64,000 nt of DNA from an uncultured Nitrospiraceae bacterium (GTDB lineage Bacteria > Nitrospirota > Nitrospiria > Nitrospirales > Nitrospiraceae), in assembly GCA_963846575.1 (NCBI GenBank), contig CAWJWJ010000002.1:480001-544000 (forward strand). The letters are read 5' to 3'. The translations under genes and the position numbers were made by a program. Below the pieces are notes generated by a model. It was not told the origin of the DNA. It worked only from the letters and a program-made list of their open reading frames with translations, and made no database searches. This document shows, piece after piece, positions 28,806-47,122 of this stretch (position 1 is its first letter; each line of letters starts with the position of its first letter).

Positions 28806-30863
28806 CTAAGGCGGGCTGGTGAAGGTGTTCAAGCCAGTCAGCTCAATGCCCTTCATCGCGGTTTGAATGGCTCCATGAAGTTGATCACCGGCTGCTTCCT
28901 TGGGCAATAACACCGAGGCACCAGCCGTTCGCATCGCATCCTGATTGTCGACCGAGGCGTTGACAGACATTCCGATGACGATCGTGTCCGGATGCGCGGT
29001 CCTTATTCGTGAAGTAGCCTCAATACCGTTCATCAACGGCATATTTATATCTATCACTACTACCGACGGTTTGAGTTTCTGCACCAGCTCTACGGCTTCC
29101 CGCCCATTGGACGCCTCAGCAACGACATCAATATCCGAAAAGCCTTCAAGCACCAGGCGTAGCCCCTGCCGAACCATTGCGTGGTCATCCGCAATGAGCA
29201 CGCGACATGAGCCCGGCTTGAGGGAGCTCGTTATGAGCGCCTGTGTCATATCTTCAGGCTGTGGAACATTTGCCAATGAGGCCTCAATCGCCGGTTCTGT
29301 TAAGCCGGACAGGGGGAGAATCAGGGTGGCAACAGTACCCTCGCCTGGTTTGGACTGCATCTCCAGGCGGCCTCCTAAAGCTTCCATGCGTTGCCGGATA
29401 CTGAACAAGCCGAATTTGGATGAGTGAGCGGCCAGCTTTTGGGATGACAAGGCACTCAGATCGAACCCCACTCCCTGGTCTTCCACGATGATTCTGAGAA
29501 AACCATCACTGCTTGCCGCCACTATCAGTGCCTTCTTCGAGACAGCATGTTTGACCGCATTCAGGAGCAGCTCACGAACTGATTGAAAGACGAGCACTGA
29601 CTGATGTTCGGGTAATTTCAATTCTTCCGGTGTGTCGATGCGCACGGTTACATTCAAGTGGTAACGTTGCATCTGCTCGCCGAGCCATCGCAGAGCGGTG
29701 AAGAGCCCGAACTCATGAAGGACGGGTGGACTGAGTTCCGCCACCAGATTTCGGGTGTAGGTCAGGGATTCATTCACGACGTCTTCAGCCTGCTTAATCA
29801 TTTCCACAGAGCGGGATAGCGGTCCGACTTTGGCCTGGCCCAACTTCAACCGTACGAGTACGAGCATTTGAGCCAAATGATCATGCAGTTCGGCAGCGAG
29901 CCGAGTGCGCTCACGTTGTTCGGCCAGATTTAACTGGTTCGCCAGCGCGCGAAGTTGCTGCTGAGAGGACACTAACTCGTGCGTGCGCTCCGAGACTTTC
30001 CTCTCGAGTTCCTCGGCAAACTGTTCCAATCGCGCTTGCGATGCCTTCCGGTGGGTGATGTCGTTGAAAAGGATGGCCACTTTTCGTTCCGACGGCACGC
30101 CGATACGCCAGGCATATATTTCGTAATGGCGATGAAGCTCGTTCTCTTCCTTCTCGAATCGCAACGGCTCGCCCGTGATGGCAATTGACCCGTAAATCTG
30201 AAACCAGTGGTCTTCGTGCCGGGGAACGATCTCCCGCACGCGTCGGCCCACCACGTTCTGCAGGCCTGTCTGGATTTCAAAGGCCTGGTTGACAAGAAGG
30301 AAGCGGTAGTCGGTTGGCTTGTGATGCTCGTCAAAGAGCACTTCTATCGTGCAGAACCCTTGATCGATCGATTCGAACAGGGTTCGATACTCTTGTTCGG
30401 ATTCACGCAGCTGATGTTGCGCAAACGACTGCTGTTCCACTAAGTCCCTCACCAGATATTGCCGACGACGTGATCGCAAGCCCACCTCGATGGAACGCAC
30501 CAGCGTAGCCTCTCCTATCGGCCGTTCAAGCAGCGTGACACCGCCGGCCGCTTCGGCCACCAGATTGAGCAACCGCGCCAAACGCGATTCGCCACCACGC
30601 GTCAACACGATCAGGGGCAACTCGCTCCATGGCGGTTGTGAATCCAGGTGGCGAAGCAAATCAGGAATCTGTGGGAGCTCAAGCGCTTCTTCGGTCACGA
30701 GCAAGGCTGCTCCACCCACCGTCAACTGGTGGCAGGTTTCAGCGGCCGTGAGACAGACCGTCGCGTCAAATCCATTTCTCGCGAGCAGCGTTGCCATGGC
30801 AGGAGCGTCCTGACCGATCGGGGCGAGGATAAGGATGCGCTCCTCGGCCCTATGTCGTGCCAT
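28806..30863 (-). CDS. Hybrid sensor kinase: pseudo-receiver / PAS / HisKA_3 / HATPase / REC
   Basis: LLVTEEAL pseudo-REC; ELHDHLAQ; RELLLNAVKHA; EDQGVGFD; VLIADDHAMVRQG. Confidence 0.9.
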   Translation of the reverse strand: MARHRAEERILILAPIGQDAPAMATLLARNGFDATVCLTAAETCHQLTVGGAALLVTEEALELPQIPDLLRHLDSQPPWSELPLIVLTRGGESRLARLLNLVAEAAGGVTLLERPIGEATLVRSIEVGLRSRRRQYLVRDLVEQQSFAQHQLRESEQEYRTLFESIDQGFCTIEVLFDEHHKPTDYRFLLVNQAFEIQTGLQNVVGRRVREIVPRHEDHWFQIYGSIAITGEPLRFEKEENELHRHYEIYAWRIGVPSERKVAILFNDITHRKASQARLEQFAEELERKVSERTHELVSSQQQLRALANQLNLAEQRERTRLAAELHDHLAQMLVLVRLKLGQAKVGPLSRSVEMIKQAEDVVNESLTYTRNLVAELSPPVLHEFGLFTALRWLGEQMQRYHLNVTVRIDTPEELKLPEHQSVLVFQSVRELLLNAVKHAVSKKALIVAASSDGFLRIIVEDQGVGFDLSALSSQKLAAHSSKFGLFSIRQRMEALGGRLEMQSKPGEGTVATLILPLSGLTEPAIEASLANVPQPEDMTQALITSSLKPGSCRVLIADDHAMVRQGLRLVLEGFSDIDVVAEASNGREAVELVQKLKPSVVVIDINMPLMNGIEATSRIRTAHPDTIVIGMSVNASVDNQDAMRTAGASVLLPKEAAGDQLHGAIQTAMKGIELTGLNTFTSPP

Positions 30864-32364
30864 CGGGCCGCTCCATCACCTGTTCGACGCCGCCATGGAA
30901 GACCGGAGCGCCCGTCAGGACTCCCTGAAATTGTGTGAGGGGCGGGCCGATCCGTAACCCGCTGTGTGATACCAACTGATATTCCCGAATGGTTTTTTCA
31001 TGACGGCCGCTCCGTTTCTTAATGACCGAGAGTGCCTGCCGAACGGAGCCAGCCGCTTCGAAAAATCGTGCACTCACAATTGTGTCGGCGAGATAACTCA
31101 GGTTCAGCGGGCCTTCGGCCGGGCCAATGAGTCCGTACTGAGCTAGAATGAAAATCGTGATGACTCCCCTCTGGTTGAGGTAGGCGGACAGCTCGTGAAG
31201 CTGATTGACGAGGTACTGCTCCCCGGGCATCGCATTCAGATAACCATTGAGGCTGTCGACAATGACCAGCTTGCAGCCATTTTCCACTCCGCGGCGAATG
31301 GACATCCCCAGTTCACCGGGCGAGAGTTCGGCGGGGTCCACCTGCTGTATATGTATCAGGCCGGTCTTGATGTGCTGCATCACATTCAATCCCAGAGCGT
31401 GGGCACGAGCCAGCACGATGCTGCGAATTTCGTCGAAAGCAAACAGCATGCTGGCTTCCCCCCGCTTCGCCATTTGTGTGGCATATTGCATGGCTAGCGT
31501 GGATTTTCCGGTACCCGCCGGACCTGTGATCAGGTTCGTCGTGCCTCGATCGAATCCGCCGCCAAGAAGCTCGTCCAACTCTTTATGCCCGCTGGATACT
31601 GCTTCTGGCTCAAAATCACCACGGTGCTCAGACGCCACGATTCGCGGAAACACTCGCAATCCGCCTGTCTCGATACTGTAATCGTGATATCCCTCACGGA
31701 ATCGCATGCCGCGCATCTTCAGGACTCGCAGCCTTCGCCGTGATCGACCATAATCGGGCGATAACTGTTCCATTTCGATCACGCCGTGCGTAAGACTCAA
31801 TACGTGAGGGTCAGTACCGATCCGGCTATTGTCCATCTTGTCATCGAGCAGCAGAGCGGTGGTGTTGTACTTGAGCAGTTCCTGCTTGAGGTTCAGAAGC
31901 TGTCGCCGATACCGCAACGCGGTTTCCGCCATCAGCCGGAACTCGGAGAGTGAATCGAAGACGATCCGGGCAGGCTGAATGCGACGGATCTCCTCAAGCA
32001 ACAACTCACTGACTTTTGTGAGCTCAAGTTCCGAAGGGTGGAAGACCGTGGTTCGTGCCTCCGGTCGTATGAGGGCGTCGATTGCTGACAGTTCGAACAG
32101 CGCGATGGAGTTCAGCGACCAACTATGCGAACGGGCGACCTTGAGGAGCTCCTCCTTCGTCTCCGAGAGGGTGATATAAAGATTTTTTTCTCCCCGGCGT
32201 ACGCCTTCAAGAAGGAACTGAAGAGCTAAGGTGGTTTTACCAGACCCCGGGTCTCCCTGAACCAAGTACAAGCAATTGCTCGGTAGCCCTCCCCCGAGGA
32301 CTTCATCCAGCCCATCTACGCCCGTGTCGCAGCGTTTGTCTGGCTCTGTGTTGTGTGCGTCCAT
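30850..32364 (-). CDS. kaiC: KaiC-like double RecA-domain ATPase
   Basis: Two Walker A motifs, GDPGSGKT and GPAGTGKS; LSYLAD at the KaiC phosphosite position; overlaps the downstream kinase. Confidence 0.85.
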   Translation of the reverse strand: MDAHNTEPDKRCDTGVDGLDEVLGGGLPSNCLYLVQGDPGSGKTTLALQFLLEGVRRGEKNLYITLSETKEELLKVARSHSWSLNSIALFELSAIDALIRPEARTTVFHPSELELTKVSELLLEEIRRIQPARIVFDSLSEFRLMAETALRYRRQLLNLKQELLKYNTTALLLDDKMDNSRIGTDPHVLSLTHGVIEMEQLSPDYGRSRRRLRVLKMRGMRFREGYHDYSIETGGLRVFPRIVASEHRGDFEPEAVSSGHKELDELLGGGFDRGTTNLITGPAGTGKSTLAMQYATQMAKRGEASMLFAFDEIRSIVLARAHALGLNVMQHIKTGLIHIQQVDPAELSPGELGMSIRRGVENGCKLVIVDSLNGYLNAMPGEQYLVNQLHELSAYLNQRGVITIFILAQYGLIGPAEGPLNLSYLADTIVSARFFEAAGSVRQALSVIKKRSGRHEKTIREYQLVSHSGLRIGPPLTQFQGVLTGAPVFHGGVEQVMERPDGTT

Positions 32365-32807
32365 AGTCCAGCTGTAACTCCAATTAGAATTCCGATTAGA
32401 ATTTATAACCGCCGCACTCGTTAGGCGAGCTAGGATAATCCCTAGTCAGGATTTGCTTTGTCTTTGCCGACGCAGCGGCCGGTTGTCATGTCGGAATCGC
32501 TCCCGTTAAGACACTGTGCCCGGTTGGCTAACAGAGAATGAGGACACGGGGCGGGGAGTGGCCCAGTTCTGGCGCCGCGAGGCTGAGTGAAGGTGCGCCC
32601 TCGAACGGTGAAGGTCCCTCCATAAAAAAAGAAAGAGGTACGGAAACGCGCTGAACCAACCAGTACTGGATTCGCCCGCACCGAAACGTGAGTAGAGGAG
32701 TGGAACAACCGGGATTCAGAACAGGACGCTGTGTTCGTGAGTCAATCTTGTGCTCCGGTGGATTGGCAATCTCCGTCGAAGGTTTGCGCCGAACCGCTTT
32801 GAGAATG

Positions 32808-32852
32808 TGGTGTCCCCGGGCTGAATTGAACCGGCAACCTTCGGTTCAGGAA
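32808..32852 (-). repeat. Degenerate att copy of the tRNA-Arg(CCT) 3' end
   Basis: TGGTGTCCCCGGGCTGAATTGAACCGGCAACCTTCGGTTCAGGAA; 5 mismatches in 45 nt vs 47046-47090. Confidence 0.85.
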
Positions 32853-33150
32853 TGTGCTACGTAGTTTGAACGCCATAACTCATTATGCTACACCTGGACA
32901 CATTAGCCCTTTCGCTTAAGTAGGATAGGTGTACAGCATCACTCATGATGACATGAGGCAGGGGTTCTCCGGCACGAACCGTCCGACTCTCCAGCGCCGG
33001 ATCGAAGGAGATGAGACCGACAAGTCGGTCCCCGGCATCGGATCTCAGGCAGCACCGGCGGTGTCAAGGATGAGCGGCAAGTAATTCTAGAACGAGCTGA
33101 GCAATGACGGCATTGTCTCAGGTGCCGTAAGCGGCATAGAGGAGGACATT

Positions 33151-33510
33151 ATGCGGCTGGTGGCACTGATTATCACGTTCGCTTTGCCTCTATGTGCCCA
33201 TGCCCAAAACGTGGGCGATCTTAGCCCGAACCCGAATAACAGTAGCACTAGCGGCAATCCCTTCAGTCCGGGCGGATCGTGGAGCATTAGTCGTCAGGGC
33301 AGTTCTGGCATTGGGCGGGCTGCCCCGACCGGCCCGTATTCCTGGTCCAACGTGTCCCCAATACCCGGACCGTCAGCGGGGTACGACCGTCCTCACTCTT
33401 CGCCACTACGCACCCCAGAGATTATGAGTCCGAACGTACCGGGCAGGAGTCTTGGGCCTTATGGCATCACGCTGCCTTCCAACCATCCGCTGGGTCTTGG
33501 TACCCGATGA
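33151..33510 (+). CDS. Secreted Gly/Pro/Ser-rich hypothetical protein
   Basis: GAGGAGG RBS; signal peptide ending AHA. Confidence 0.65.
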   Translation: MRLVALIITFALPLCAHAQNVGDLSPNPNNSSTSGNPFSPGGSWSISRQGSSGIGRAAPTGPYSWSNVSPIPGPSAGYDRPHSSPLRTPEIMSPNVPGRSLGPYGITLPSNHPLGLGTR

Positions 33511-34399
33511 GATGATGATTATCAGATGCCTGTGGGCGCAGGGAAGACGGCATGTGATACACCATATTCCCACCTCAGCCTCTCCATTCAGACAGCCCGC
33601 AATCCCTTTTTCACCAGACTGCGAGACGAGATGGCGAGCGATCTTGTAATCCTGTGTCCTGTGTCATCTTTGACAAGGCTGTACCCCTGCTACGCGTAAC
33701 TCGTGGTCATCCGCTTCTGAAATGACTGTGTGCCCTCTTTCTCGCAGTCGTTCTTATTGGACCGTCGGTCCTGGCATTTATTAGGGATGGGGGACCGTTG
33801 GTTCTCTGGTCAGGGGGCGGCAACCCAATCGGTAGGCGGCCGCTTATCCCTAGCTCGCTGACGCAGTTCCTTGGATGGCGTTAGGTTTCTGGGTTTGACC
33901 AGCTGTCTCGCAGTCATCACCAGTGGGTCACCGATCACTGAGATGGCTGTGGTTTCTCGCCGTGACGCTGTTGTACTGCCTATTACCCATCCCGTTTCAG
34001 CATCGTTATGACTGGTGTGTCCCTCGGGCATTCGCCCCATGACTTCTCAGTCAATCGAATGGGCGCAAGAGCTAACCTGGCGCGACTTACGGCGAATTAC
34101 CCACGTTCTAACAGCCAGAGCCAAAGCCAACGGTGGAGTTGCGTGTCCGGTCGATGACCTGAAGATCCTCAGCCGCTTCATGTTGGGCGGCCAGATACTG
34201 ATGTACGATGTGCGATGCGTAGACTGAGGTACACGGTCGGCTCCCAGTCCACCAATGCATCCTGGATCGATAGTCATGAGGGTGAGTGGAGACCGTCAAG
34301 AAGCGTGGCTTCAGGTCACGACATTGGCACGTGACATCGGGGAGGTCGTTACGTGGGTATCAAATTATGGCGGACAGGAATCGTACTTCATGAATCCCT

Positions 34400-34556
34400 T
34401 AAACCGTCTTAGGATGGACGGCACAGGCGACACTGCAACGGCGATGCAGACTGTGGGCCACAAGTCGGAGAGGATGTTGAAGCGGTTCAATGTCATCGTG
34501 AGAAGGACTTCGTCACAACAGCATCACGAAGTAACACGTATCTCGAAGCTGATACA
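34400..34556 (+). pseudogene. Tyrosine integrase C-terminal remnant
   Basis: DTATAMQTVGHKSERMLKRFNVI, then shifted EKDFVTTASRSNTYLEA; homologous to the 37338-37560 remnant. Confidence 0.8.
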
Positions 34557-34608
34557 TCAGTATCGCCTGCCCATTCAGCAGCGCTGTCCATTCCTATAGC
34601 TGCTTATC

Positions 34609-34652
34609 GGTGCCCCCGGCCAGAATTGAACAGGCGACCTTCGGTTTAGGAA
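34609..34652 (-). repeat. att copy of the tRNA-Arg(CCT) 3' end
   Basis: GGTGCCCCCGGCCAGAATTGAACAGGCGACCTTCGGTTTAGGAA; 1 mismatch in 44 nt. Confidence 0.93.
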
Positions 34653-35161
34653 TCAGTGGAGAGGGGATGCTCAAGTTGTTGAAGACCTGGGCATTCCCCG
34701 CCCCCCGCGCTATTGCTGCAAGCCCATTCTTTCCCCTCCAGTAGTCTCAATTCTTTTCAAATCACCTCACTTTGTTCCTCTTCTTAACACTGTAATAACA
34801 CCTGTCCAGCCACCCCCGGGGGGTGCCTTGCGCGACCTTCCGCCCTCACCGATCCGGCGTACATGGGACCCGCGTGTTAAGGACTCACCTTGCATGAGAC
34901 AGCTCCTGCTAGCCTGACCCCGTCCATGCACCATCCATTCCACGCTGGTTGCCTTGAACTTTCCCAACCGCGATGTTACGGTCCCGTTTGCTTACCCGCG
35001 GGACGCGGCTATCAGGAATGGCTATACGGCACGAGCTTTTCTATGCGAACGCGGAGAAAGAAGCCCTGTTGCAAAGTCCAACCAATAGCGGGGCGGGCTG
35101 GGCACCCTAACGAAGAGCGTTGAGTCTGCGCGTGCTCGCCTTCACGCCATTTTCTTGACCA

Positions 35162-36481
35162 ATGGATAATGCCACTCTCTGGTTCATCCTCGTGGGCTCT
35201 CTATTCCTCGGAGTTGCCGTAGTCGGCTCCTATGTGCGGCGTCTGCCGCTATCGACCGCGCTGCTGTATCTGGCCGTGGGCGTGGCCCTCGGTCCCATTG
35301 GCCTGGGAGTGATCCGGCTTGACCCTTTCGAGGATGCCGCGTTTCTCGAACGGGTCAGCGAGGTGGCGGTTATCATCTCACTGTTTACTGCCGGGCTAAA
35401 ACTTCGCATTCCCCTGTCGGATTACCGATGGAGGCCGCCGCTGCGGCTTGCGTTCGTTTCCATGACCGCGACTGTGTTCGCTCTTGCGTTCGCAGGTGTG
35501 TATTGGATCGGGTTGTCCTGGGGCGCGGCAGTTCTGCTTGGCGCCGTGCTCGCGCCTACAGACCCAGTTCTCGCCAGTGACGTTCAAGTGGAGCATCCTT
35601 TTGATTACGACCCCCTTCGATTCTCTCTGACAGGTGAAGCCGGATTCAACGATGGCACGGCCTTCCCGTTCGTCATGCTTGGCTTAGGTCTCCTCGGACT
35701 GCACCCGATGGGAGACTGGGGAGTCCGATGGTTCGTGGTAGACGTGGTCTGGGCCATCGTCGGAGGCCTGCTCATCGGCACCTTATTAGGGACGGCGGTT
35801 GCCCGAGGCGTTCTTTATTTGCGGCGGGTTCATCGTGAGGCAGTCGGGCTCGATGACTTTCTCGCATTGGCCTTGATAGGACTTTCATACGGCCTGGCGC
35901 TGCTCTGCCATACGTACGGCTTTCTGGCGGTGTTCGCCGCCGGGTTAGCCTTACGCCGTATCGAACGCCACCAGAGTCCGGAGGAGGACAACGAGTCAGA
36001 ATCGGTCTTTGATGCGGGCCAGTCAGAAGAGGAGGTGGCAACCGATCCGGAAAAGGCGCCCGCCGCCATGGCGGAAGTTGTGCTCCACTTCACTGAGCAA
36101 CTGGAACGGATGGGCGAACTCGTTATCGTGGTGCTGATCGGAGCAATGTTGTCGTGGAGGTTGGTGCCCTGGCAGGCAATCTGGTTTGTTCCCCTGTTGC
36201 TGCTGATCATCAGGCCTGTATCGGTGTATCTGGGACTGCTCGGAAGCTCAGTGCCTGCGCTGGAAAAACAGTTTACCGGCTGGTTCGGCATCCGAGGCAT
36301 TGGATCCGTTTACTATTTGATGTATGGACTAGTTCATGGAGTTCCGGAGGTGGAAGCCCGAACGCTGATCGGATTGACGCTTGCGACCATCGTGGTGTCT
36401 GCACTGGCGCATGGGATCACGGTCACACCTTTGATGAAGTTGTACGCAAATAGAACCTCAGAAGCTCGGGCCGTGTCGTGA
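35162..36481 (+). CDS. Cation:proton antiporter (CPA1/NhaP family)
   Basis: LAPTDPVLA, GEAGFNDG, RP, WFGIRGIGS; many TM segments. Confidence 0.92.
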   Translation: MDNATLWFILVGSLFLGVAVVGSYVRRLPLSTALLYLAVGVALGPIGLGVIRLDPFEDAAFLERVSEVAVIISLFTAGLKLRIPLSDYRWRPPLRLAFVSMTATVFALAFAGVYWIGLSWGAAVLLGAVLAPTDPVLASDVQVEHPFDYDPLRFSLTGEAGFNDGTAFPFVMLGLGLLGLHPMGDWGVRWFVVDVVWAIVGGLLIGTLLGTAVARGVLYLRRVHREAVGLDDFLALALIGLSYGLALLCHTYGFLAVFAAGLALRRIERHQSPEEDNESESVFDAGQSEEEVATDPEKAPAAMAEVVLHFTEQLERMGELVIVVLIGAMLSWRLVPWQAIWFVPLLLLIIRPVSVYLGLLGSSVPALEKQFTGWFGIRGIGSVYYLMYGLVHGVPEVEARTLIGLTLATIVVSALAHGITVTPLMKLYANRTSEARAVS

Positions 36482-36945
36482 GGGTACCGGGCAGTGTGCC
36501 ACGACACTGGTAAGGAGCTTTGCTAGCCAACGGATGGGTGAAATCCCCAGCGGGCGCTATGGAACATATAGGACCTGAATGTTGTATGCGGCTAGAGCAA
36601 GGATAGAACGCCCTCGCCTCTACCAAGGAACCCCCGACATCATCGTTTACAGCCTGGCATGCGCCCATTCACGTCATTCTGAGGCAGGCCGTCCCGGTAA
36701 GACGTTCTTTCCAAGAGTCCATCTCCCCGCACCTCCCCATGCTCCAGAGGAGGTAGCCGAAGCTCAAAGGGAAACTAGAGTTTGTCAGATTGCACTGAGT
36801 TACGTTGCGCGTGACGGTTCTATGCTGATGCAGGGCACACTTTCGAGCACGCCTGTCAATTCAGGCTCCGCAGACATGCCGCCCCCGGGGGACGTTGTAC
36901 GGCCAGGGCTCTGTATCACAAGCCCTTACATAGGACCCGCGTGGT

Positions 36946-37092
36946 AAGCTAGGATTCCAAGCCGGTGTGCATCGTACGTATGTCAGTCAAATTGAACGTG
37001 GCTTGGAATCACCAACAATGAATACCATTGTGCGGATTGCACGGGCACTTAACATCCCGCCAGAAAAGCTAGTTTCCGTTGTTGATCGTTAA
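36946..37092 (+). pseudogene. 5'-truncated XRE/HTH_3 regulator
   Basis: KLGFQAGVHRTYVSQIERGLESPTMNTIVRIARALNI; in-frame stop at 36931 and no start codon. Confidence 0.75.
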
Positions 37093-37337
37093 AATTTACG
37101 ACCTTAGGATGATTCTGTCCGCCAGCTTTCATCTAGAAATCGGATGCCACGACAAGATACTCCATTAACCTACTACGCGTTCATTGAGATTGCTTTCCAC
37201 AGGCTTTTTGGATACACCTTGCCATGAAGATAGGTACATGACGCAAATGAAACCTAAGATTAAGAGTTAAGGTGTCAGAAGAATCGATCTCCCTGAGAAC
37301 GGTGTTGACCTGGATTGGTGCCAGATAGGTTTCCGGT

Positions 37338-37560
37338 GTGGAAGGCTTGCGATTCCATGACCTACGCCACTGTGCCGCGACGAACCTCCGAAGAGCGGGA
37401 GTCGATACGGCCACTGCAATGCGGATTGTGGATCACAAGTCGGAAAAGACGTGGAAGCGGCACAACGCTATCGATGAGAAGGACCTGACCACGGCAGCGG
37501 CTAGACTGAACACTTACCTCGAAGCTAACACTGTATTAACACCTGCCGATTCGACTCCAT
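37338..37560 (+). pseudogene. Tyrosine integrase C-terminal remnant
   Basis: FHDLRHCAATNLRRAGVD..HKS..KRH (H at the usual catalytic Tyr position); N-terminal part absent. Confidence 0.85.
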
Positions 37561-37587
37561 TACCGATTCCTATAACTGCTTCATTAT

Positions 37588-37633
37588 TTGGTGCCCCCGG
37601 CCTGAATTGAACAGGCGACCTTCGGTTTAGGAA
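37588..37633 (-). repeat. attL of the youngest island (exact 46-bp copy of 47045-47090)
   Basis: TTGGTGCCCCCGGCCTGAATTGAACAGGCGACCTTCGGTTTAGGAA is identical at both sites. Confidence 0.96.
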
Positions 37634-38308
37634 TCAGGACAGGACAGTTTTTAAAATGCTCGGTGTTTCAAATGGTTTCCCCGTTTTTACAGCGAAAGCA
37701 GGTACTTGCACGCGTTCCATTGATTCGATGAATTCGAGGTGTATAGATCGGTTTTGAAGTTTTTTAGCACAAATTTAGCACAGTGGTTTGGGGTGAACCC
37801 CTCCGGTGAGACAGATTGTGATCGCGCACGTGGTGGTTTAATGATGCTGCTCCTCACGGTGCTCCTCGTGCCTAGCGTTTTACGGGCGGCGCCGCATACC
37901 CCTGAGTGTACTGTGGATCATGTATCGCCCGGATGGGTGCTGAAGTTGCGCCTAGTCTCCCTCACCTAGTCCTTGAGTCTCATAGATCCGAGTTCCCCTC
38001 GTGTCCGCTGCTATCTACCGGGGCTATGCCCAGTGCACCAAAAGCGAAGTCGGGGCTAAAGTCATAGGGTGGTGCTCGAATGAGCAGGTCCTGTAGCTGT
38101 GCTCCGATGCCTCCGCATCGTACCGGCAGCAACAACGCGGACCTTTACTTCCCTGAGTCTGCAGACGGAACGTCCAATCTCCCACGCCTGTGGTCGATCA
38201 GGAGAGCATCCTGTTCGGTTGTTGCGGCAACCGTTCCACGGACGCAGATATCACCGAGCCTGACGAGACCTTGCGAGCACCATCTCGATCTATTTGAGGA
38301 ATATACCC

Positions 38309-39151
38309 ATGCAATCAAACTTCATAGACTCGATGCGTACTGACGGTGGCGACCTCCTCAGACGCGATAGGTGCCTTTGGAACCCCCTGACGATCGATCC
38401 CGTGGCAAGCCAGTTCTCGAGTTACGCGGCCTTCCAGGACACGGCGGTCATCAGGCCCCTGGTACCGGACGTACCTGTCGGCGCCGACCTCACCGATGCG
38501 CACGATCAACTGAGACAACAGATGTTTGGCGAGTACTACCCATGCGCTGGCGCGATCTCGGTGTTCGCTCAAAAAAGCTATCGTTTCGGATTATTCCCAG
38601 AACTCGCGGGCGACAGTGCCGTCCGTGCCGTCTGTCACGATCTCTATGAGTTCTGCCACGAATTCCCGATCATGGACGACCAGCTCACGACCTTTATCGC
38701 GATGTTCCGCGGACCCGCGATCGAATCAGAACAGCATTTTGAGGATCTGCTTTGGACTCAGCTACAGGCCATGCACGTCATTGATTCCGATTTCTTTGCC
38801 TGGGACAAGAGCGTCGACTCCAACCCACAGAACAATAACTTTTCATTCAGCATCGGCGGGCGAGCGATGTTCATCATCGGCATGCACCCCAAGGCCTCAC
38901 GTCTCGCACGCACCTTCAGGTATCCGACCATGGTGTTCAACCTGCATGCACAGTTTGAGCGCTTGCGCGCTCGCGGTAAGTTTGAGACGATGCAGCAGCT
39001 CATTCGGGCACGCGAGATGGCGTTCCAGGGCTCGATCAACCCGATGCTGAAAAACTTTGGCAAAGGCTCCGAAGCGAATCAATATTCCGGGCAGGCCGTT
39101 TCAGACAATTGGCCATGCCCGTTCCATGCACACACAAAGGACGAACCATGA
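38309..39151 (+). CDS. YqcI/YcgG family (DcsA/GntA-like) heme-dependent enzyme
   Basis: YPC..A (FPC-like) motif, FSFSIGGRAMFIIGMHP.ASR.AR, VFNLH.QFE.LR, C-terminal WPCPF. Confidence 0.8.
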   Translation: MQSNFIDSMRTDGGDLLRRDRCLWNPLTIDPVASQFSSYAAFQDTAVIRPLVPDVPVGADLTDAHDQLRQQMFGEYYPCAGAISVFAQKSYRFGLFPELAGDSAVRAVCHDLYEFCHEFPIMDDQLTTFIAMFRGPAIESEQHFEDLLWTQLQAMHVIDSDFFAWDKSVDSNPQNNNFSFSIGGRAMFIIGMHPKASRLARTFRYPTMVFNLHAQFERLRARGKFETMQQLIRAREMAFQGSINPMLKNFGKGSEANQYSGQAVSDNWPCPFHAHTKDEP

Positions 39152-39741
39152 CCACTCATCAGTGGACCCGTATTGCCCCACAGAGTGGCTGCTCATTCAA
39201 TATCAAGCGTGGGCAAGTGCTGCGCGTTGTCGATCCGCTGGGCGAGCAGGTCTCTGACCTGTTCGCCTTCGACGAGCACGATCACCATTGCCGATTGTCG
39301 TCAGGTCGTTCGCTGGACTATGCGAGCCGGATCTACCTGACGACGAGCGACATCCTCTACGCCAGCAATAGCAAGCCGATGTTCACCATCGTCGAAGACA
39401 CCGTGGGGCTGCATGACTTCCTCCTGACGCCCTGTAGTCAAGAGATGTTTCAGATTCTGTACAAGCATGAGGGTCACCATCCGAGCTGTTTCGAGAACCT
39501 CGTTAACTCGTTAAAAGCGTACGGTATCTCCGGCCATCAAATCTCGACAACCTTCAACATCTTCATGAACGTCAAGGTCGATCCGCAGGGAACAGTGACG
39601 GTGGGCGTGCCTATGTCAAAGCCGGGGGACCACATCGACCTGCGGGCCGAGATGGACATGGTGTGCGGCCTCACAGCCTGCTCGGCTGAAGGTTCGAACA
39701 ACGGGAGTTTCAAACCTATCGACTTTTCAATCCTTGATTGA
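39148..39741 (+). CDS. DUF1989 urea-carboxylase-associated family protein
   Basis: GQVLRVVDPLGEQVSD, HDFLLTPC, HPSCFENL, FNIFMNV, SKPGD..LRAEMD..GLTACS; ATGA overlap with the upstream gene. Confidence 0.9.
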   Translation: MTTHQWTRIAPQSGCSFNIKRGQVLRVVDPLGEQVSDLFAFDEHDHHCRLSSGRSLDYASRIYLTTSDILYASNSKPMFTIVEDTVGLHDFLLTPCSQEMFQILYKHEGHHPSCFENLVNSLKAYGISGHQISTTFNIFMNVKVDPQGTVTVGVPMSKPGDHIDLRAEMDMVCGLTACSAEGSNNGSFKPIDFSILD

Positions 39742-39868
39742 CGTCTGGGGGACCGCCACATTTCTCTTCTTTCTAAACCTGTACTAATACATCGATGCGA
39801 AACATGCTGAGGTAAACGGGGGCAGCAGAATCAAGAAGAGCGCTCTGTCTCGGAAGCAGTGGAAGAAA

Positions 39869-39916
39869 CGATGAACCATACTGGTATCGAACCAGTGGGG
39901 TCTTCTGTGTGAAGGC
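39869..39916 (-). repeat. Relic 3' half of a tRNA-Val(CAC)-like gene (att remnant)
   Basis: Minus strand GCC-TTCACAC-AGAAGACCCC-ACTGG-TTCGATA-CCAGT-ATGGTTC: CAC anticodon loop and perfect T-arm, no 5' half. Confidence 0.65.
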
Positions 39917-40128
39917 AAAAGCGAAGATTTCTTAATTGCTCGCTGTTGCAATGGTTTCCCCATAAAGATTCAAAATTCAAGTGGTTATGAGTTCTCTATA
40001 GCTTCTATTCTCTGCATTACGTTTCAGGAGATCAGATGATTTCTGACACAAAAGTGACCACAGGGTGACTACCTATATGAGCTGGCTGGATTAAAATACC
40101 GCGCGTTAAGACCCACGACAGAATAGTC

Positions 40129-40170
40129 GGTTGCGAGAAGAGATTGAACCTCTGACCTGGGAGTTAAGAG
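40129..40170 (-). repeat. Relic 3' half of a tRNA (fMet-like 3' end; loop reads CTT) (att remnant)
   Basis: Minus strand CTCTTAA-CTCCC-AGGTC-AGAGG-TTCAAT-CTCTTCTCGCAACC; followed by a copy of the island C left-end arm region. Confidence 0.55.
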
Positions 40171-40584
40171 ATGCCTAATGTGCAGTTCTCTAATGCCTTG
40201 TTCCTACGTCTTGTTTCTAGCTTTATAAATAAAATCAGCGCTTTATCGGATCTAAGGGCTCCGATTGATTCAGCAATTCTGTTCTCTTTTGGCGAGGTTT
40301 AGCACAAATTTAGCGCAATGATTTGGGAGAACCCCACCTCGATCTTGCGTATGCCTTCACAGGGAAATAGGAGCTAGACCTATGTAACACTGACCTCCAC
40401 TCCTCCAGGACAGCCTTCAGACCCTGAGGATAAGTTGCAAAAGAGCCACTCCATGAATGTGACCGCACGCATATATTCGGGTGGAATACTCTGCTTCAAT
40501 CTGGCAGAGTACCAACCTCGAGCGGTACTGATGTCGTCACTAGACAGGTCCGTTTAGAATTGACTCCCTTTTGTCGCTCTGCAC

Positions 40585-43341
40585 ATGCCATCTTTGCTAC
40601 CACCGAATGACCAAATCCAGGCGGCACTATATCTAGCCGCCATCGTCGATTCGTCCGACGACGCCATCATCAGTAAGAATTTGTCCGGAGTCATCCAGAG
40701 TTGGAACCGAGCCGCTGAGCGCATTTTTGGTTATACGCGCGAAGAAGCCGTCGGACAATCAATTCTGCTCGTGATCCCGCCCGACTTGCAACACGAAGAA
40801 GCATATATTTTGGAGCGCTTGCGCAAGGGAGAGCGCATCAGCAATTTTGAGACGACGCGACGTCGAAAAGATGGAACCCTGGTTGATATCTCGTTAACCA
40901 TTTCACCGATTCGTACAAACGAGGGGCACATTAGCGGAGCGTCGAAAATCGCACGTGACATCACCGAGCAAAAAGCAGCCCGGGCCCGATTGGAGGAAAC
41001 TCAGGAACGACTGACCGTTACCTTGCAAAGCATCGGCGACGCTGTCCTCGCCACAGACGCGGAGGCCCGCGTGACATTTGCCAATTCGGTGGCTGAAACA
41101 TTACTGGGTCGCTCCAAACATGAAATGCTGGGCCAACCGCTAGCGACAATCTTTACTATCGTTCATGAAGACACACGACAGCCTATTCAGAGCCCAGTGG
41201 ACGACGTCTTACAAAATTCTAAAGCAGCCAGTCTTGCCAACCACACAATTTTGGTGCGTCCCGACGGTTCGGAACTGCCTATCGATGATAGCGCCGCACC
41301 TATTTTGAACTCGAGAGGACAGTTATTGGGCGTCGTCTTAGTGTTCCGGGATGTGACGCAGCGGCGCAGTATGCATCGCTTGGCCACGCAATTTTCCGCA
41401 ATCGTCGCCTCTTCCGACGATGCCATCATCAGCAAGAACCTCAGCGGGATCGTATTGACCTGGAATCGCGGCGCGGAGCGGATCTTTGGATATTCTGCCA
41501 ATGACATGATCGGGCAATCCATCACTAGAATTATTCCGGCAGATCGGCTAACGGAAGAACGGGAGATTCTCACACGGTTGGCACGAGGCGAGCACATTGA
41601 CCACTATGAGACCGTGCGGCAAAAACAGGATGGGACCTTATGCAACATCTCGCTCACCGTCTCGCCTATTAAGGATGAGAACGAACGAATTATTGGTGCG
41701 TCTAAAATTGCCCGGGACATCACCGTCCAGAAGCTCGCCAAGCGAACCATCGAGGAAGCACAGGAGCGGTGGCTAGTCACGTTAGCCAGCATTGGGGATG
41801 CCGTGATTGCGACCGATGCGGAGGCGAAAATCACATTCGCCAATGCCGTTGCAACACACCTCATGGGCCGCACCTTGGATGAGGTCGTAGGGAAGCCGTT
41901 AGTTGATCATTTCCACATCGTGAATGAAGACTCACGACACCGCGTCGAAAGCCCAGTGGACCGTGTGATCCGGGAGGGCGTGGTGGTGGGCTTAGCTAAC
42001 CATACGGTCCTAATTCGCCCCGACGGCACTGATGTGCCTATCGACGACAGTGCGGCACCGATTCGAGATGCGAAGGGGCAACTATTGGGAGTGGTCTTAA
42101 TCTTCCGTGACATTACGGAACGAAAGCGCACGGAGAAAGAGCTATCCCAGTGGCGGACCGAGTTAGAACGGAGGGTAGAGGAACGCACCGAGCAGCTAGT
42201 TCGCTCACAGGACCGACTTCGCGCATTGGCGATTCAATTAAATCGGACTGAGCAACGTGAGCGACGTCGCCTGGCGACAAATCTTCACGATTATCTGGCC
42301 CAACTCCTTGCCTTGGCTCGTATCAAACTAGGTCAAGCCAGGCGCCCATCCAGTCGGGTTTCAGCCCAAGATCAGCCGACACTCACAGAAGTTGATACTC
42401 TGCTTGAGGACTGCCTCCGGTATACCCGCACGCTGATGGGTCAACTGAGCCCGTCTGTATTGGTTGACATTGGATTCGTCCCAGCTCTTCAATGGCTGGC
42501 TCAACAGATGGGGCAGCAAGGGCTCACTGTCGCCGTGCAGGTGCTCACGCCCAATATGCCGCGGTTACCTGACACCACGGCCGATCTACTTTTTCAGTCG
42601 GTTCGAGAACTCCTGTTTAATGTGCTCAAGCACGCCCGCGTATCCGACGCCATCATTTCCGTGGAGCAGCGTGAGGGCGGCGATTGGGTCATTTCATTGG
42701 AGGATCAAGGAGTAGGCTTCGATCCGGCTTTAATGCGACAACGACTCGGTGATGGACATTTCGGGCTATTCAGCATCCAAGAGCGAATGGAAGCCATAGC
42801 CGGTTGGTGTCATATCCACTCGGCTCCGGGAGGTGGCACCCGCATCGAATTAGGTCTAGCCGTGCCGAATGACGCTGAGAGGCCTTCCCCTGCAAGGCTA
42901 CCATCTAAGCCCCGCGCAACCGATCACGGCATCAAGGACATACCTGTTTCTTGCACGCGCGTGTTACTTGTAGATGATCATGCCATGGTCCGACAAGGGC
43001 TTCGTAGTATCCTTGATAATTATGATGATTTGGAAATCGTCGCCGAGGCCGTGGATGGCGAAGAAGCTGTGTCACTCACGCACCGGCTCCAACCGGATGT
43101 CGTCCTGATGGACATCAACCTTCCTCGTCTCAATGGAATTGATGCTACACGGAAAATAAAGCAGGCGTGGCCGCACATCATCGTTATTGGTTTGTCGGTG
43201 CAATCTTCGCCCCAAACGCTCCAAGCTTTTGTTGAAGCTGGAGGAGCCGACTTAATCAGTAAAGAGCAAGCAACGGAAGACTTACATTCCACAATCCAAG
43301 AGTTTGTGGAATCATCGGGCCGGAGGGGAGAGATTAACTGA
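40585..43341 (+). CDS. Soluble hybrid sensor kinase 4xPAS / HisKA_3 / HATPase / REC
   Basis: PAS repeats AIV.SSDDAIISK (x2) and TL.SIGDAV.ATD (x2); NLHDYLAQ; RELLFNVLKHA; VLLVDDHAMVRQG. Confidence 0.93.
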   Translation: MPSLLPPNDQIQAALYLAAIVDSSDDAIISKNLSGVIQSWNRAAERIFGYTREEAVGQSILLVIPPDLQHEEAYILERLRKGERISNFETTRRRKDGTLVDISLTISPIRTNEGHISGASKIARDITEQKAARARLEETQERLTVTLQSIGDAVLATDAEARVTFANSVAETLLGRSKHEMLGQPLATIFTIVHEDTRQPIQSPVDDVLQNSKAASLANHTILVRPDGSELPIDDSAAPILNSRGQLLGVVLVFRDVTQRRSMHRLATQFSAIVASSDDAIISKNLSGIVLTWNRGAERIFGYSANDMIGQSITRIIPADRLTEEREILTRLARGEHIDHYETVRQKQDGTLCNISLTVSPIKDENERIIGASKIARDITVQKLAKRTIEEAQERWLVTLASIGDAVIATDAEAKITFANAVATHLMGRTLDEVVGKPLVDHFHIVNEDSRHRVESPVDRVIREGVVVGLANHTVLIRPDGTDVPIDDSAAPIRDAKGQLLGVVLIFRDITERKRTEKELSQWRTELERRVEERTEQLVRSQDRLRALAIQLNRTEQRERRRLATNLHDYLAQLLALARIKLGQARRPSSRVSAQDQPTLTEVDTLLEDCLRYTRTLMGQLSPSVLVDIGFVPALQWLAQQMGQQGLTVAVQVLTPNMPRLPDTTADLLFQSVRELLFNVLKHARVSDAIISVEQREGGDWVISLEDQGVGFDPALMRQRLGDGHFGLFSIQERMEAIAGWCHIHSAPGGGTRIELGLAVPNDAERPSPARLPSKPRATDHGIKDIPVSCTRVLLVDDHAMVRQGLRSILDNYDDLEIVAEAVDGEEAVSLTHRLQPDVVLMDINLPRLNGIDATRKIKQAWPHIIVIGLSVQSSPQTLQAFVEAGGADLISKEQATEDLHSTIQEFVESSGRRGEIN

Positions 43342-44150
43342 TTAGTGTCTGGAACTAGTCAATTGGTCAATTGAGGAAGAAGCGTTGCGCGCGCAGTGAG
43401 GCACATACCACAAATGGATTCGTGTCGGTGCAGAAGTCATTTGCCCTGGAGTGCTGATTGCCGTATATAACAAACCAGCCTGCAGGATTGTTGGATGAGC
43501 CCACTCAGCCCAACTAGTAGATATATTCTCTTTTCTCATCAAAACCGGTCCTATTGGCCTCCTCGTCCAGGAGGCAATTTAGTCGCAGCCATAAGCGCCT
43601 CTCAGCGGACTAACGCTTACATGCGCGTCTTTACGCTCACTTTCAATTAGCTTGCTCATGGACAATTTGTCCGCTGCTCTCACACCTGTAGACCTCCGGT
43701 GCGGCAGTGGATTATTTTAAATAGAGAGCTCTGCCTAACAAGATCAGCGCTCTATGGCGCACACTGGGCGGTGCTGGGCGAGTAACTGGTCCGAACGCTA
43801 CGCCTTTTCTCAGAGAGTCCGGCATTTGTGCAAGGTCAAGGCTGACTAGCGTTAGCTTTTGGCACGTTGCATGATATCCAGTCTGTTTGCCTAAGCACAT
43901 CTCAGAGTCCAGTTTTTCCTCGAAGCATCTGCCTTCCGTTCAGATCAAGTCGATTGATGATCCTTATCTTCTGGATTCCCGTTAAGAGGATGAACATTGA
44001 TTCCGGTCTGACCTCCGGTATGGGGCACAGAGTGATCCTCGACTAGGACACTACAGGATGTCATGCGAAGGGGTTTCCCATGCCTGGCTCTTTGACGACA
44101 AGAATGTTTCTACATGCATATTTTATTGAGTGGAAGTCCAGTCTGTCGAA

Positions 44151-44179
44151 TTGACATATAATATAAAGTATATTAGTGT
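44151..44179 (+). promoter_or_regulatory. Sigma-70 promoter with an overlapping inverted repeat
   Basis: TTGACA 44151-44156, 17-nt spacer, TAGTGT; TAATATA-AAG-TATATTA at 44159-44175. Confidence 0.6.
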
Positions 44180-44199
44180 AAGGTCTAGTCACCTGGAGC

Positions 44200-44457
44200 A
44201 TGCTTAAAATGAAGGTTGAAGGCGCCAAGAACGAAACTTTGCAATTCAAAGTCACCGAGCACGAACGTAAGCTGATTGAGAAGTGCGCTCAGGAGGAAGG
44301 GACAACCGTATCCAAATACGTGCGCGGGGCGGTTCTCATGAGCATGGTGATGGATGGGAAGGCCGAGGCGATCAAGATTGTGGCGAGAGAAGTGGGCGAG
44401 AAGGCGTTTGCGGTGGTGCGGCAGAAATTAACCCGACCGGCACAGGAAGGACGCTGA
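44200..44457 (+). CDS. Ribbon-helix-helix protein (DUF1778/MobC-like)
   Basis: TLQFKVTEHERKLIEKCAQEEGTTVSKYVR; GGAG RBS. Confidence 0.75.
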   Translation: MLKMKVEGAKNETLQFKVTEHERKLIEKCAQEEGTTVSKYVRGAVLMSMVMDGKAEAIKIVAREVGEKAFAVVRQKLTRPAQEGR

Positions 44458-44538
44458 AAAGAGTGCTTTTCGGTTCACCATCAGCAGGCAAAGCCGGTCC
44501 GCGCCCCATGCCGGCAGGCTGGGGGGCGGACCGGAATG

Positions 44539-44563
44539 GCCCCCGTCTTGGTAACACGGGGGC
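44539..44563 (+). other. Putative nick-site hairpin (dso/oriT) for the Rep_trans protein
   Basis: GCCCCCGT-CTTGGTAAC-ACGGGGGC, resembling the CCCCC..TAACA.GGGGG oriT hairpins of MOB-T/Rep_trans elements; a second GC-rich hairpin at ~44494-44533. Confidence 0.65.
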
Positions 44564-44602
44564 GCTACCTACAGCGCTCCGTACAGGAGGTCGATAGGTT
44601 CC

Positions 44603-45614
44603 ATGGATTCTACCTTCACGCTCTCCATTGATTGGTTGGCCTTTACGGTCCTGGCCAGCAATCCTCAAGAGACCATGAAGGTCCTCGGTGGAGAGTGGAG
44701 TCGGGCCAAAGGTGGCTTTCGAGGCTATCCCCTCTCATGGGTCAAGACAGATGGACTGCGAGGAGTGGGCAAACTGGGCACGAACGCGCCTCGTCGTCCG
44801 AATGAAATCCATGTCGATCTCTCTGGCGGTTTGGTTTCTGCGCTCACACTCGATCAGATTCGAGTGCTTCTGAAGTGGGTCCATGCCCAGCAAGGGCACG
44901 TGACTCGAATCGACTGTGCCCTCGATGATCGAGCTGCAACCGTCTCCGTCTCGACGGTTCGAGAGGCCGTCGCTGCTGGTCAGTGTGTGACCCGTGCAGC
45001 TCAGGTTCGACACATTGTCTCCAACCTGACGCATGGGAACGGAGCGACGACCGGCGAGACGATGTATTTCGGCAGTCCACAGAGCCAGACCCTCTTGCGC
45101 ATTTATGACAAACGGCTCGAACTTAAGAGTAAGGGCCAAGAGAACTGGCAGGACTACGGTACTCGGTGGGAACTAGAACTCAAGAAGGATCGGGCTGACC
45201 AATGTGCCCGCGCATTGGCCACCTTAGACGAAGCCGACTGGAAGGAGTTGGTGATCGGCTTACTCCGGTCCTATGTGGATTTCCGGCAGATCCCGAAGGA
45301 TGCCGAGGATGAAGAACGCTACCGGGCTCCCAGTGCTGGAGTGGTACGCCATTCTGACGGAGGGATTTCAGAAGGGGCGATTAGCCCAGGAGACGCAGGT
45401 GCAGACCCTGCAAGATGTGAAACGATGGGTGAGCGACACCCTGACGCCAATGCTGGCGGTCATCTGTGCCACCCCTGGAGGGGAAGAATGGCTACAGCAC
45501 GAAATAGTCAGGGGCATCTCCCGGTGGAAAGACCGGCACCGGAACTTGCTCAAACAACCACCCACTCGGTTTCACACGTCGTCTGCCGGCGGGAACGCGG
45601 GCAGGCCATGTTAG
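44603..45614 (+). pseudogene. Rep_trans replication initiator / MOB-T-like relaxase with one extra base
   Basis: SIDWLAFT, TRIDCALD, GETMYFGS, LRIYDK, RWELELK; removing one C from CCC 45329-45331 joins it to ORF 45273-45614 (336 aa). Confidence 0.85.
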
Positions 45615-45656
45615 GGGGACTGGGGGTGTCGCGAGACGCCCCCGGTGTATGTGCAC

Positions 45657-45968
45657 ATGCTCACCGTCAAAGAGCTCTCGGCTTGGCTCAACATCAAGTC
45701 GTCCACACTCTACCTCTGGGTTTCACGGAACAAGATTCCGTGCTGTCGCATTCATGGGCTCATCCGATTCGAACCTGAGGCCATACAAGCCTGGCTGAAG
45801 GGCTTTGGGGCCAACCCCGTCAAGCCGTGCCCACTGCCGACCCGCCAGGATTCCAACGACGTAGACCACCTGATTGCCGCGGCCAAACGTGCCGTCTATA
45901 CTCCCCGCCACGGGGAAACCATCACACCGAGCCCACGCACGAAGGAGGAGCAGCATGGGGCTCGTTAA
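45657..45968 (+). CDS. Excisionase-like HTH_17 DNA-binding protein
   Basis: MLTVKELSAWLNIKSSTLYLWV..KIP..RI..LIRF....I.AWL. Confidence 0.85.
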   Translation: MLTVKELSAWLNIKSSTLYLWVSRNKIPCCRIHGLIRFEPEAIQAWLKGFGANPVKPCPLPTRQDSNDVDHLIAAAKRAVYTPRHGETITPSPRTKEEQHGAR

Positions 45969-47040
45969 ACGGAACAATACATGGTGGATGTCATTTACGT
46001 ATCAGGGGCAGCAAGTCCGAAGGTCGACAGGGACGGCGGACAAGCGAATGGCTGAGGCGATTCTCGGCAAAGTGAAGGCTCAGGTTATTGAAGGGCGCTT
46101 CTTCGAGAAACCGAAGGAAAATTTAAAAACGTTCACCGAACTGATGGATCGGTATCTGAGGGAACATGCTAGCCGGCGAGCGAACTATCGACGGTATGTG
46201 GACATGGTGAAGAATTTGAAGACCTTCTTCGGGAACCCCAGTCTAGTGCAAGTCACGCCAAAGACCATTGTGGCATACAAGAACAAACGGTATGCCGATG
46301 GGGTGAAGCCTGCCACGATAAATCGGGAACTCGCGTTACTAAAAAAAGCCTTCAATTTGGCCTGCCGCGAGTGGGAATGGACAGAGGACAATCCCGTCTG
46401 CCGAGTTTCTATGGAGAAAGAGCAGAACGCGCGAGACCGTTGGTTGACTGAGGATGAGGAGGCGAGGCTGTTCGCAGTTGCTCTGCCGTGGGTCAAAGAA
46501 GTCGTGATCTTTGCCATACATACTGGTATGCGGAGAGGCGAAATTCTGGCACTCACGTGGGCTGGAGTGAATTTCACTCGTCGAACCGTGACTGTCTTTC
46601 AATCGAAAAACGGAGAGCGGCGCACAATTCCGGTGAACCAAACGGTCTTGGATTTGCTCGCGCAGAAACGTGCGCAGAGGAGTGGATCGACAAGGATTCT
46701 GGAACAGGATGTCGTCTTCGTCAGTCAATCTGCCACTCCATTGGATAGCAGCAACCTTCGTCGAAGGTTTATCAGCTCTCTCAAAACCGCACAGATCACG
46801 GACCTTCACTTCCATGATCTTCGCCACACTTTCGCAACGCGGCTGGTTCAGGCTGGAGTAGATCTTTATAAGGTTCAACGACTGCTGGGGCATAAGTCAC
46901 CGACGATGACTCAGCGGTATGCCCATCATTATCCTGAAAGTTTGCGGGATGGAGTAGAGGTGTTGGACCGAAAGGGGAGGATTAGCACAAATTTAGCACA
47001 GCGAGGAGAAGCGGCAACTTCTGTTTCTCTAAATTGTTGA
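45955..47040 (+). CDS. Tyrosine recombinase/integrase (intact)
   Basis: GGAGGAG RBS; N-terminal arm-binding-like domain; HTGMRRGEI, SKNG, HFHDLRH, LLGHKS..MTQRYAH. Confidence 0.96.
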   Translation: MGLVKRNNTWWMSFTYQGQQVRRSTGTADKRMAEAILGKVKAQVIEGRFFEKPKENLKTFTELMDRYLREHASRRANYRRYVDMVKNLKTFFGNPSLVQVTPKTIVAYKNKRYADGVKPATINRELALLKKAFNLACREWEWTEDNPVCRVSMEKEQNARDRWLTEDEEARLFAVALPWVKEVVIFAIHTGMRRGEILALTWAGVNFTRRTVTVFQSKNGERRTIPVNQTVLDLLAQKRAQRSGSTRILEQDVVFVSQSATPLDSSNLRRRFISSLKTAQITDLHFHDLRHTFATRLVQAGVDLYKVQRLLGHKSPTMTQRYAHHYPESLRDGVEVLDRKGRISTNLAQRGEAATSVSLNC

Positions 47041-47045
47041 AAGAT

Positions 47046-47122
47046 TGGTGCCCCCGGCCTGAATTGAACAGGCGACCTTCGGTTTAGGAAACCGCTGCTC
47101 TATCCAACTGAGCTACGGGGGC
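47046..47122 (-). tRNA. tRNA-Arg(CCT)
   Basis: GCCCCCGTAGCTCAGTTGGATAGAGCAGCGGTTTCCTAAACCGAAGGTCGCCTGTTCAATTCAGGCCGGGGGCACCA. Confidence 0.97.

Follow-up and report, generated by a model that had tools for sequence, protein, structure and literature searches.

The described mobile elements most similar to the Nitrospira elements analyzed here are the streptococcal MobT/Rep_trans IMEs, with their accretion of CIMEs and microCIMEs, and a PICI tandem. In the accessible portions of the reports on the former (PMC5704250, PMC7563491), the features in common with Nitrospira are a tyrosine integrase acting at a tRNA 3′ end, a Rep_trans-type initiator and cargo, as well as tandem arrays in which the most decayed units lie outermost, with internal att sites and gene-less units of a few hundred bases. 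However, the IME/CIME tandems described there are built on one shared target gene, whereas the internal ends in Nitrospira belong to other tRNAs; no coupling protein or helper was identified for the Nitrospira elements. The closest precedent for this arrangement, as far as the available part of its description goes, is the complex tRNA-Ile2/fis PICI tandem (PMC10111431), in which outer att sites of one target enclose an unrelated internal attP. Its authors ascribe the internal fis attP to homologous recombination with an incoming circular element. Off-target integrations and doubled arm motifs, there located ∼132 bp from the crossover, are further common features, but the PICI tandem is a single case with the duplication still present, while the Nitrospira arrangement recurs and the duplicate module has probably been lost.

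Three other systems resemble parts of this picture, according to the sections of their reports that were available. Prochlorococcus tycheposons (bioRxiv 10.1101/2020.12.28.424599) are likewise small cargo elements at tRNAs whose integrases cluster by target tRNA, and their islands contain scattered partial tRNAs and integrase remnants, as in Nitrospira; they differ in having another replication module, and the partial tRNAs described for them derive from the tRNA that the island itself occupies. SXT/R391 hybrid ICEs and the attL′ of ICESt1 (PMC5812530) provide RecA-made sister hybrids and an internal attL, but the partners use one integration site and are large, self-transmissible elements. 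Mesorhizobium tripartite ICEs (PMC5882170) have several att types per element; three integrases and three excisionases use all of these sites, in contrast to the single integrase and decayed extra sites found here. A literature search with most subscription papers outside its coverage found no description of the Nitrospira family or of nested foreign tRNA fragments.

The Arg element and its nested tRNA halves

We analyzed a 64,000-nt stretch of contig CAWJWJ010000002.1 (the window; G000:C2:480001-544000) from an uncultured Nitrospiraceae bacterium, which contains an element integrated at tRNA-Arg(CCT) (Table 1). The Arg element spans positions 37589-47090, with its integrase ending at the tRNA. 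It is likely an IME, judged from its gene content, with a putative capacity for mobilization: it has its own integrase with 45/45 att repeats, a Rep_trans gene (frameshifted relative to its sisters), and no T4SS in the ORF list or in a Pfam scan of the main ORFs. Alignment with the sisters places a one-base frameshift of rep near position 45329, reflecting either decay or a long-read/assembly error; the rep of the Thr element in the same genome is also frameshifted, at a different position. The MobT-type nic site is CT'AA in the loop of a G+C hairpin (PMC9371924), and the loop of the candidate hairpin upstream of rep reads GTAA, compared with the published CTAA. The multi-PAS cargo gene had no match at E≤1e-40 among 38 same-genus genomes, and matches of 63-69% in 12 of 300 family genomes.

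Table 1. Features of the tRNA-Arg(CCT) array, in window coordinates.
Feature	Position	Strand	Basis
Oldest visible tandem unit; Arg half 40/45; integrase remnant	32808..34607	.	
Older tandem unit at same tRNA-Arg; Arg half 43/45; Na+/H+ exchanger cargo	34608..37588	.	
Arg(CCT) 3′ half, 45/45, outer att of Arg element	37589..37633	-	
Outer left (P) end, Thr/Arg type; arm repeat 37764-37782	37634..37782	+	
Cargo: YqcI/YcgG-family gene and DUF1989 gene	38294..39741	+	Pfam
Val integrase-side (P′) flank stub, without P′ arm	39837..39868	+	
tRNA-Val(CAC) 3′ half, relic, 37/45, crossover loop intact	39869..39913	-	
Val-type left (P) end; Val arm repeat 40044-40063	39914..40063	+	
Linker, 64 nt, without recognizable P′ stub; also in native Val elements of G026 and G062	40064..40127	.	
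tRNA-fMet 3′ half, relic, 36/45	40128..40170	-	
fMet-type left (P) end; arm repeat 40299-40317, 1 mismatch	40171..40317	+	
Cargo: histidine kinase/response regulator hybrid, multi-PAS	40585..43341	+	Pfam
Ribbon-helix-helix protein, NikA-like	44200..44457	+	PF21983
G+C hairpin upstream of rep, conserved, candidate nick site	44539..44563	+	
Rep_trans rolling-circle initiator/relaxase	44603..45614	+	PF02486, E=8e-26
HTH_17 protein, Xis-like	45645..45968	+	Pfam
Tyrosine integrase, 361 aa, R/H-x-x-R/H/Y motifs, open frame, arm-binding domain	45955..47040	+	PF00589, PF12167
Integrase-side (P′) arm repeat, tRNA 3′ end 45 nt away	46982..47000	+	arm role suggested by geometry
tRNA-Arg(CCT), intact, proximal att of Arg element	47046..47122	-	ARAGORN

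Beyond the outer att site, the units at 32808-37588 keep same-target att ends in tandem, as CIMEs do, and the identity of successive Arg halves to the host gene falls outward (45/45, 43/45 and 40/45 at 37589, 34608 and 32808, respectively). The unit at 34608-37588 has a different arm type (34785-34804, 37526-37545) and an integrase remnant at 37338-37560. In contrast, the unit nested inside the Arg element is bounded by Val and fMet halves rather than by same-target att sites. Other classes were considered and rejected: PICI (no primase/replication, packaging-interference or AlpA genes among the ORFs scanned against Pfam), tripartite or multipartite ICE (only one integrase in the Arg element), and integron (the junctions are tRNA halves with arm repeats, and the integrase has an arm-binding domain). 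Beyond the outermost Arg half, a decayed piece at 32555-32785, 70% similar to the Arg element's own integrase, hints at a fourth unit, although no far end of such a unit was found. Near 32640 there is a tRNA-like stretch, but 200 of 300 shuffles matched it, so that it is not above the null. A KaiC-like ATPase and an ORF that reads like a hybrid sensor kinase lie just beyond the array, at 28806-32364.

To identify the nested halves, we scored them against the 45 host tRNAs, with 300 dinucleotide shuffles of each as the null. For the Val relic (39869-39913), Val(CAC) is the best match with a score of 65 (next tRNA 32), which none of the 300 shuffles reached (maximum 38). For the second relic (40128-40170), tRNA-fMet scores 50 (next tRNA 34), again above all 300 shuffles (maximum 29). 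The first-pass annotation, made from the sequence alone, had read these fragments as 3′ halves of a Val(CAC)-like and an fMet-like tRNA in the same orientation as the Arg att, and on both points our analysis agrees with it. It had left Lys open for the second relic, an identity we reject: the inner flank has a similarity of 0.71 to the ends of fMet elements vs. 0.59-0.61 to two Lys classes, and the copy in G026 has a CAT loop. The Val arm, previously placed at 40054-40072, actually lies at 40044-40063, where it matches the arm of the genome's own Val element at 19 of 20 positions; only 3 copies within 3 mismatches exist in 4.2 Mb. In both relics the arm repeat is 128-130 nt from the end of the anticodon loop. 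Folding of the arm regions revealed no structure above shuffles. The fragments are decayed attachment ends of sister elements that target the Val and fMet tRNAs.

A family of elements at eight tRNA targets

The Arg element belongs to a family with a tyrosine integrase, Xis, Rep_trans, RHH and cargo, which occupies eight tRNA targets. Sisters in the source genome reside at Thr(CGT), Val(CAC) and Lys(TTT) sites, and relatives add Glu(CTC), Gly(GCC), fMet and Lys(CTT), so that the related elements predicted at other tRNAs do exist, for Val(CAC) in the source genome itself and for fMet in relatives. The geometry that the two relics keep is constant across the family: the tRNA match extends as far as the 7-nt anticodon loop, the left end has a doubled arm ∼130 nt inward, and another arm copy is found 45-57 nt from the tRNA 3′ end. 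From this geometry and the accessible part of the PICI study (PMC10111431), we infer that the anticodon loop is the crossover and that the repeats are arm sites.

We compared integrase and rep trees for 31 elements spanning 6 target labels, after a filter that retained no integrase from Val or Lys elements. The integrase tree, built from residue 56 on, has 5 tRNA-label changes, while the rep tree has 18, compared with a shuffled mean of 17.1. Between the Arg and Thr elements of the source genome, similarity is 88-99% over the stretch from rhh to the start of the integrase, but 61-78% beyond it. Together, these observations indicate that the target tracks the integrase C-terminus and that rep, decoupled from target, recombines freely among sites. 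The window integrase is nested among Thr(CGT) integrases, indicating that retargeting happens; the Thr and Arg loops differ at one base. The first-pass annotation had proposed a family that retargets between tRNAs, and retargeting itself holds up. Its route, however, appears to be a swap of the integrase C-terminus with its att, not the leaving behind of old ends.

How common are foreign ends inside such elements? Our census collapsed 119 loci into 94 regions, with both cognate ends in view in 35 elements and not in 16; Gly elements are missing from it because their P′ arm fails the 3-mismatch filter. Some internal end was found in 15 of the 35 complete elements, and in 10 it belongs to another tRNA class, leaving 25 without a foreign end. 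The census was not blind: the window and L022 entered only by relic likeness (8/33 without both), and kin are not independent. Whole foreign 3′ halves occur in 5 of the 35 elements (6 halves), and none of the 6 has a P′ arm within 80 nt. A fresh cointegrate, with a full internal foreign integrase and att, was found in none of the 35.

The remaining foreign ends are core only, with the sister's left end beginning at the core. In 8 of 11 orphan ends tested (two of which have a common origin), agreement with the cognate core holds at 9-14 of the last 15 nt and at only 6-12 of the next 30, while the left end itself is 76-95% intact; in a Gly case, 11 exact core bases are followed by a 98% end. These ends look like integrase-made insertions at secondary sites in sister cargo that were later resolved through rep. 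The window's two relics are outside this class. Nesting is also seen in the genome's own Thr element, which contains a Glu-type end of the core-only kind as well as an orphan arm (G000:C2:135422-135504, 138249-138326), and orphan tRNA-like fragments with no intact tRNA nearby occur at G000:C2:958796-958842 and 974736-974754. The host tRNA-Arg(CCT) 3′ half (47046-47090) has several differences from the allele in most relatives, tRNA-fMet and tRNA-Val(CAC) have two alleles each, and the distal fMet half of L028 differs from the intact gene; these allele differences are consistent with elements replacing tRNA 3′ halves.

The window's junctions recur, diverged, in G023, G026, G062, G003 and a contig of run X2. 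Of 38 same-genus genomes, two (G026 and G062) have the Val and fMet double end at their native Val site, and in G062 it lies in a complete native Val element with Val integrase and tRNA, where the fMet relic is found 257 nt inward from the left end. At Glu(CTC), G023 has a 91.5% identical copy of the block that runs from the outer arm across yqcI-DUF1989 and the Val relic up to the Val arm, bordered by the two arms. The run X2 contig matches from DUF1989 through the Val arm and then diverges, and carriers of the Val relic in general diverge directly after its arm. The yqcI-DUF1989 block occurs at Arg, Glu and Thr sites, the latter in G062 and G011. Cargo blocks thus change partners at the ends, which bears out this part of the earlier suggestion. 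None of the 24 matches in a metagenome scan for the Val-fMet linker was homologous, and viral contigs gave 3 arm matches, none with the family rep or left ends.

Several individual loci show further irregularities. In G023, a deletion starts precisely at the CCA terminus where the Val relic would lie and reaches codon 95 of the integrase (L034:8036-8038/L033:811-813). The yqcI-unit left end at Thr(CGT) in G062 (L174:11609-11653, G062:C3) combines a Thr stem with an Arg(CCT) anticodon loop, a one-base hybrid that is possibly an Arg-type element docked off-target at Thr. L036/L169 (G019:C39) has a left end that matches Glu(CTC) at 100% and is accompanied by fragments of the Glu-locus flank, with an Arg integrase and Arg tRNA at the right, and is either a rearrangement between sisters or an assembly chimera. 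In viral contigs L085 and L086, which encode a distant integrase, the family's arm repeat lies beyond an intact tRNA-Thr(CGT), on its far side.

Origin of the nested ends

The inner flank of the Val relic is 76% identical over 187 nt to the same genome's Val element. On the outer side, 22 of the adjacent 30 nt agree with the integrase-side flank of Val elements, while 2000 random genome pieces reached at most 19. Thus the relic matches Val elements on both sides and looks like an attP minus its P′ arm, not like a plain attL; a host-chromosome origin of the outer flank was not seen. The first-pass picture of stacked left ends is therefore only partly right: sister ends are indeed stacked inside the Arg element, but the Val relic has both flanks. 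P′ stubs were also found at a Val half in G023 (22/30) and at a 100% intact Thr half nested in an Arg element of G009 (19/30; null maximum 18).

We propose, with a probability of about 0.55, that a circle of Val type, excised with the fMet relic already in it, entered the Arg element by recombination in the near-identical rep-xis genes, and that the redundant mobility module was then lost by deletion. Circles would form and meet resident elements, and a single crossover in rep/xis would place the incomer's whole attP (P′-3′ half-crossover-P) inside the resident. A deletion would then strip the duplicated rhh-rep-xis-int together with the P′ arm; with both gone, a sister integrase could not excise the block, and its cargo would be fixed. 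The fMet end would have joined the Val element earlier, probably by the same route, and left ends may later act as homology patches for the exchange of cargo blocks.

Several observations count against entry as a Val circle: the lack of fresh cointegrates among the 35 complete elements, an fMet relic without a stub (12/30 in its outer 30 nt), a stub in G003 that is ambiguous between Val (17) and Lys (18), and patchy informative sites. Across the Val end, the window has 6 shared-derived sites with G023 up to 39923, followed by 12 with G026 vs. 5 with G023; there is no clean crossover, and the order and direction of events are not fixed. In addition, L102, a yqcI copy that lacks a Val relic, still reaches 18/30 against Val P′; some of the resemblance seen in the stub may thus come from cargo DNA that acted as a guide for a deletion.

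P′ stubs are also present at ordinary same-tRNA tandem junctions, and the Val relic could therefore derive from a tandem array rather than from a circle. In that case, the inside of such an array would have been copied into a sister at another tRNA by two crossovers, one in the shared left end or arm and one in rep, replacing the cargo. We regard this route as possible, though distinctly less probable than the circle. Native Val, Thr, Glu and fMet sites commonly have tandem junctions that carry integrase stubs, the shared yqcI block begins at the arm, and Thr and Arg left ends are 87-89% alike. Cargo replacement also accounts well for the Thr half nested in an Arg element of G009. The left ends of Val and Arg elements, however, are only 59-64% alike, with different arms, making the left crossover hard for the Val relic, and the yqcI block was not found behind any Val left end among the annotated loci.

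The nested ends might instead be working sites, either docking pads that sister integrases use as secondary targets or components of a multi-att element comparable to the tripartite ICEs. The Val relic retains an intact crossover loop and a near-perfect arm, a Val integrase is encoded elsewhere in the genome, the nested Thr half of G009 is undamaged, and the carriers of the Val relic differ right past its arm. We nonetheless consider such a role unlikely: the relics have decayed (37/45 and 36/45) where the outer ends have not, P′ arms are absent from all 6 nested halves, the element has one integrase, and 25 of the 35 complete elements have no foreign end. The relics are probably passive and decaying, and the Arg integrase, as far as sequence allows prediction, would excise only between 37589-37633 and 47046-47090. 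The first-pass annotation had envisaged a circle joining ∼40130 to 47090, but 2 of the 7 crossover bases in the relic loop do not match those of the Arg loop, making such a circle unlikely; the available part of the PICI report (PMC10111431) states that tyrosine integrases tend to require crossover identity.

A single element that moved from fMet to Val to Arg, keeping its old left end each time by imprecise excision, a history close to the first-pass reading, would account for the fMet-inside-Val-inside-Arg order, which is real, and the place of the window integrase among Thr integrases shows that targets do change. Such a history is improbable, however, as it requires arm type A, then V, then A again, the outer flank of the Val relic is P′-like and not host-like, and target changes track swaps of the integrase C-terminus. 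Assembly artefact or chance likeness can be dismissed for practical purposes: the window genome has a possible indel error in rep, but no shuffle in 300 reached either relic's score, and the same junctions recur, diverged, in independent genomes.

Address and cargo in a nitrifier genus

The mechanism proposed here works like IME/CIME accretion: its single steps are known, and its recurrence across tRNA sites is new. A more tentative and rather doubtful reading is that the eight tRNA sites share one cargo pool, in which captured att ends serve as adaptors (both homology patches and secondary docking pads for sister integrases) and islands build up as integron-like cassette stacks, interspersed with foreign tRNA halves and core sites, without an integron integrase.

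The family shows how islands that target tRNAs switch address and collect cargo. [quoted passage not shown] Foreign tRNA halves are marks of past captures, and they can mislead the calling of island boundaries. The family is common in Nitrospira, a key genus of nitrifiers: 32 of the 39 genomes contain its arm motif.
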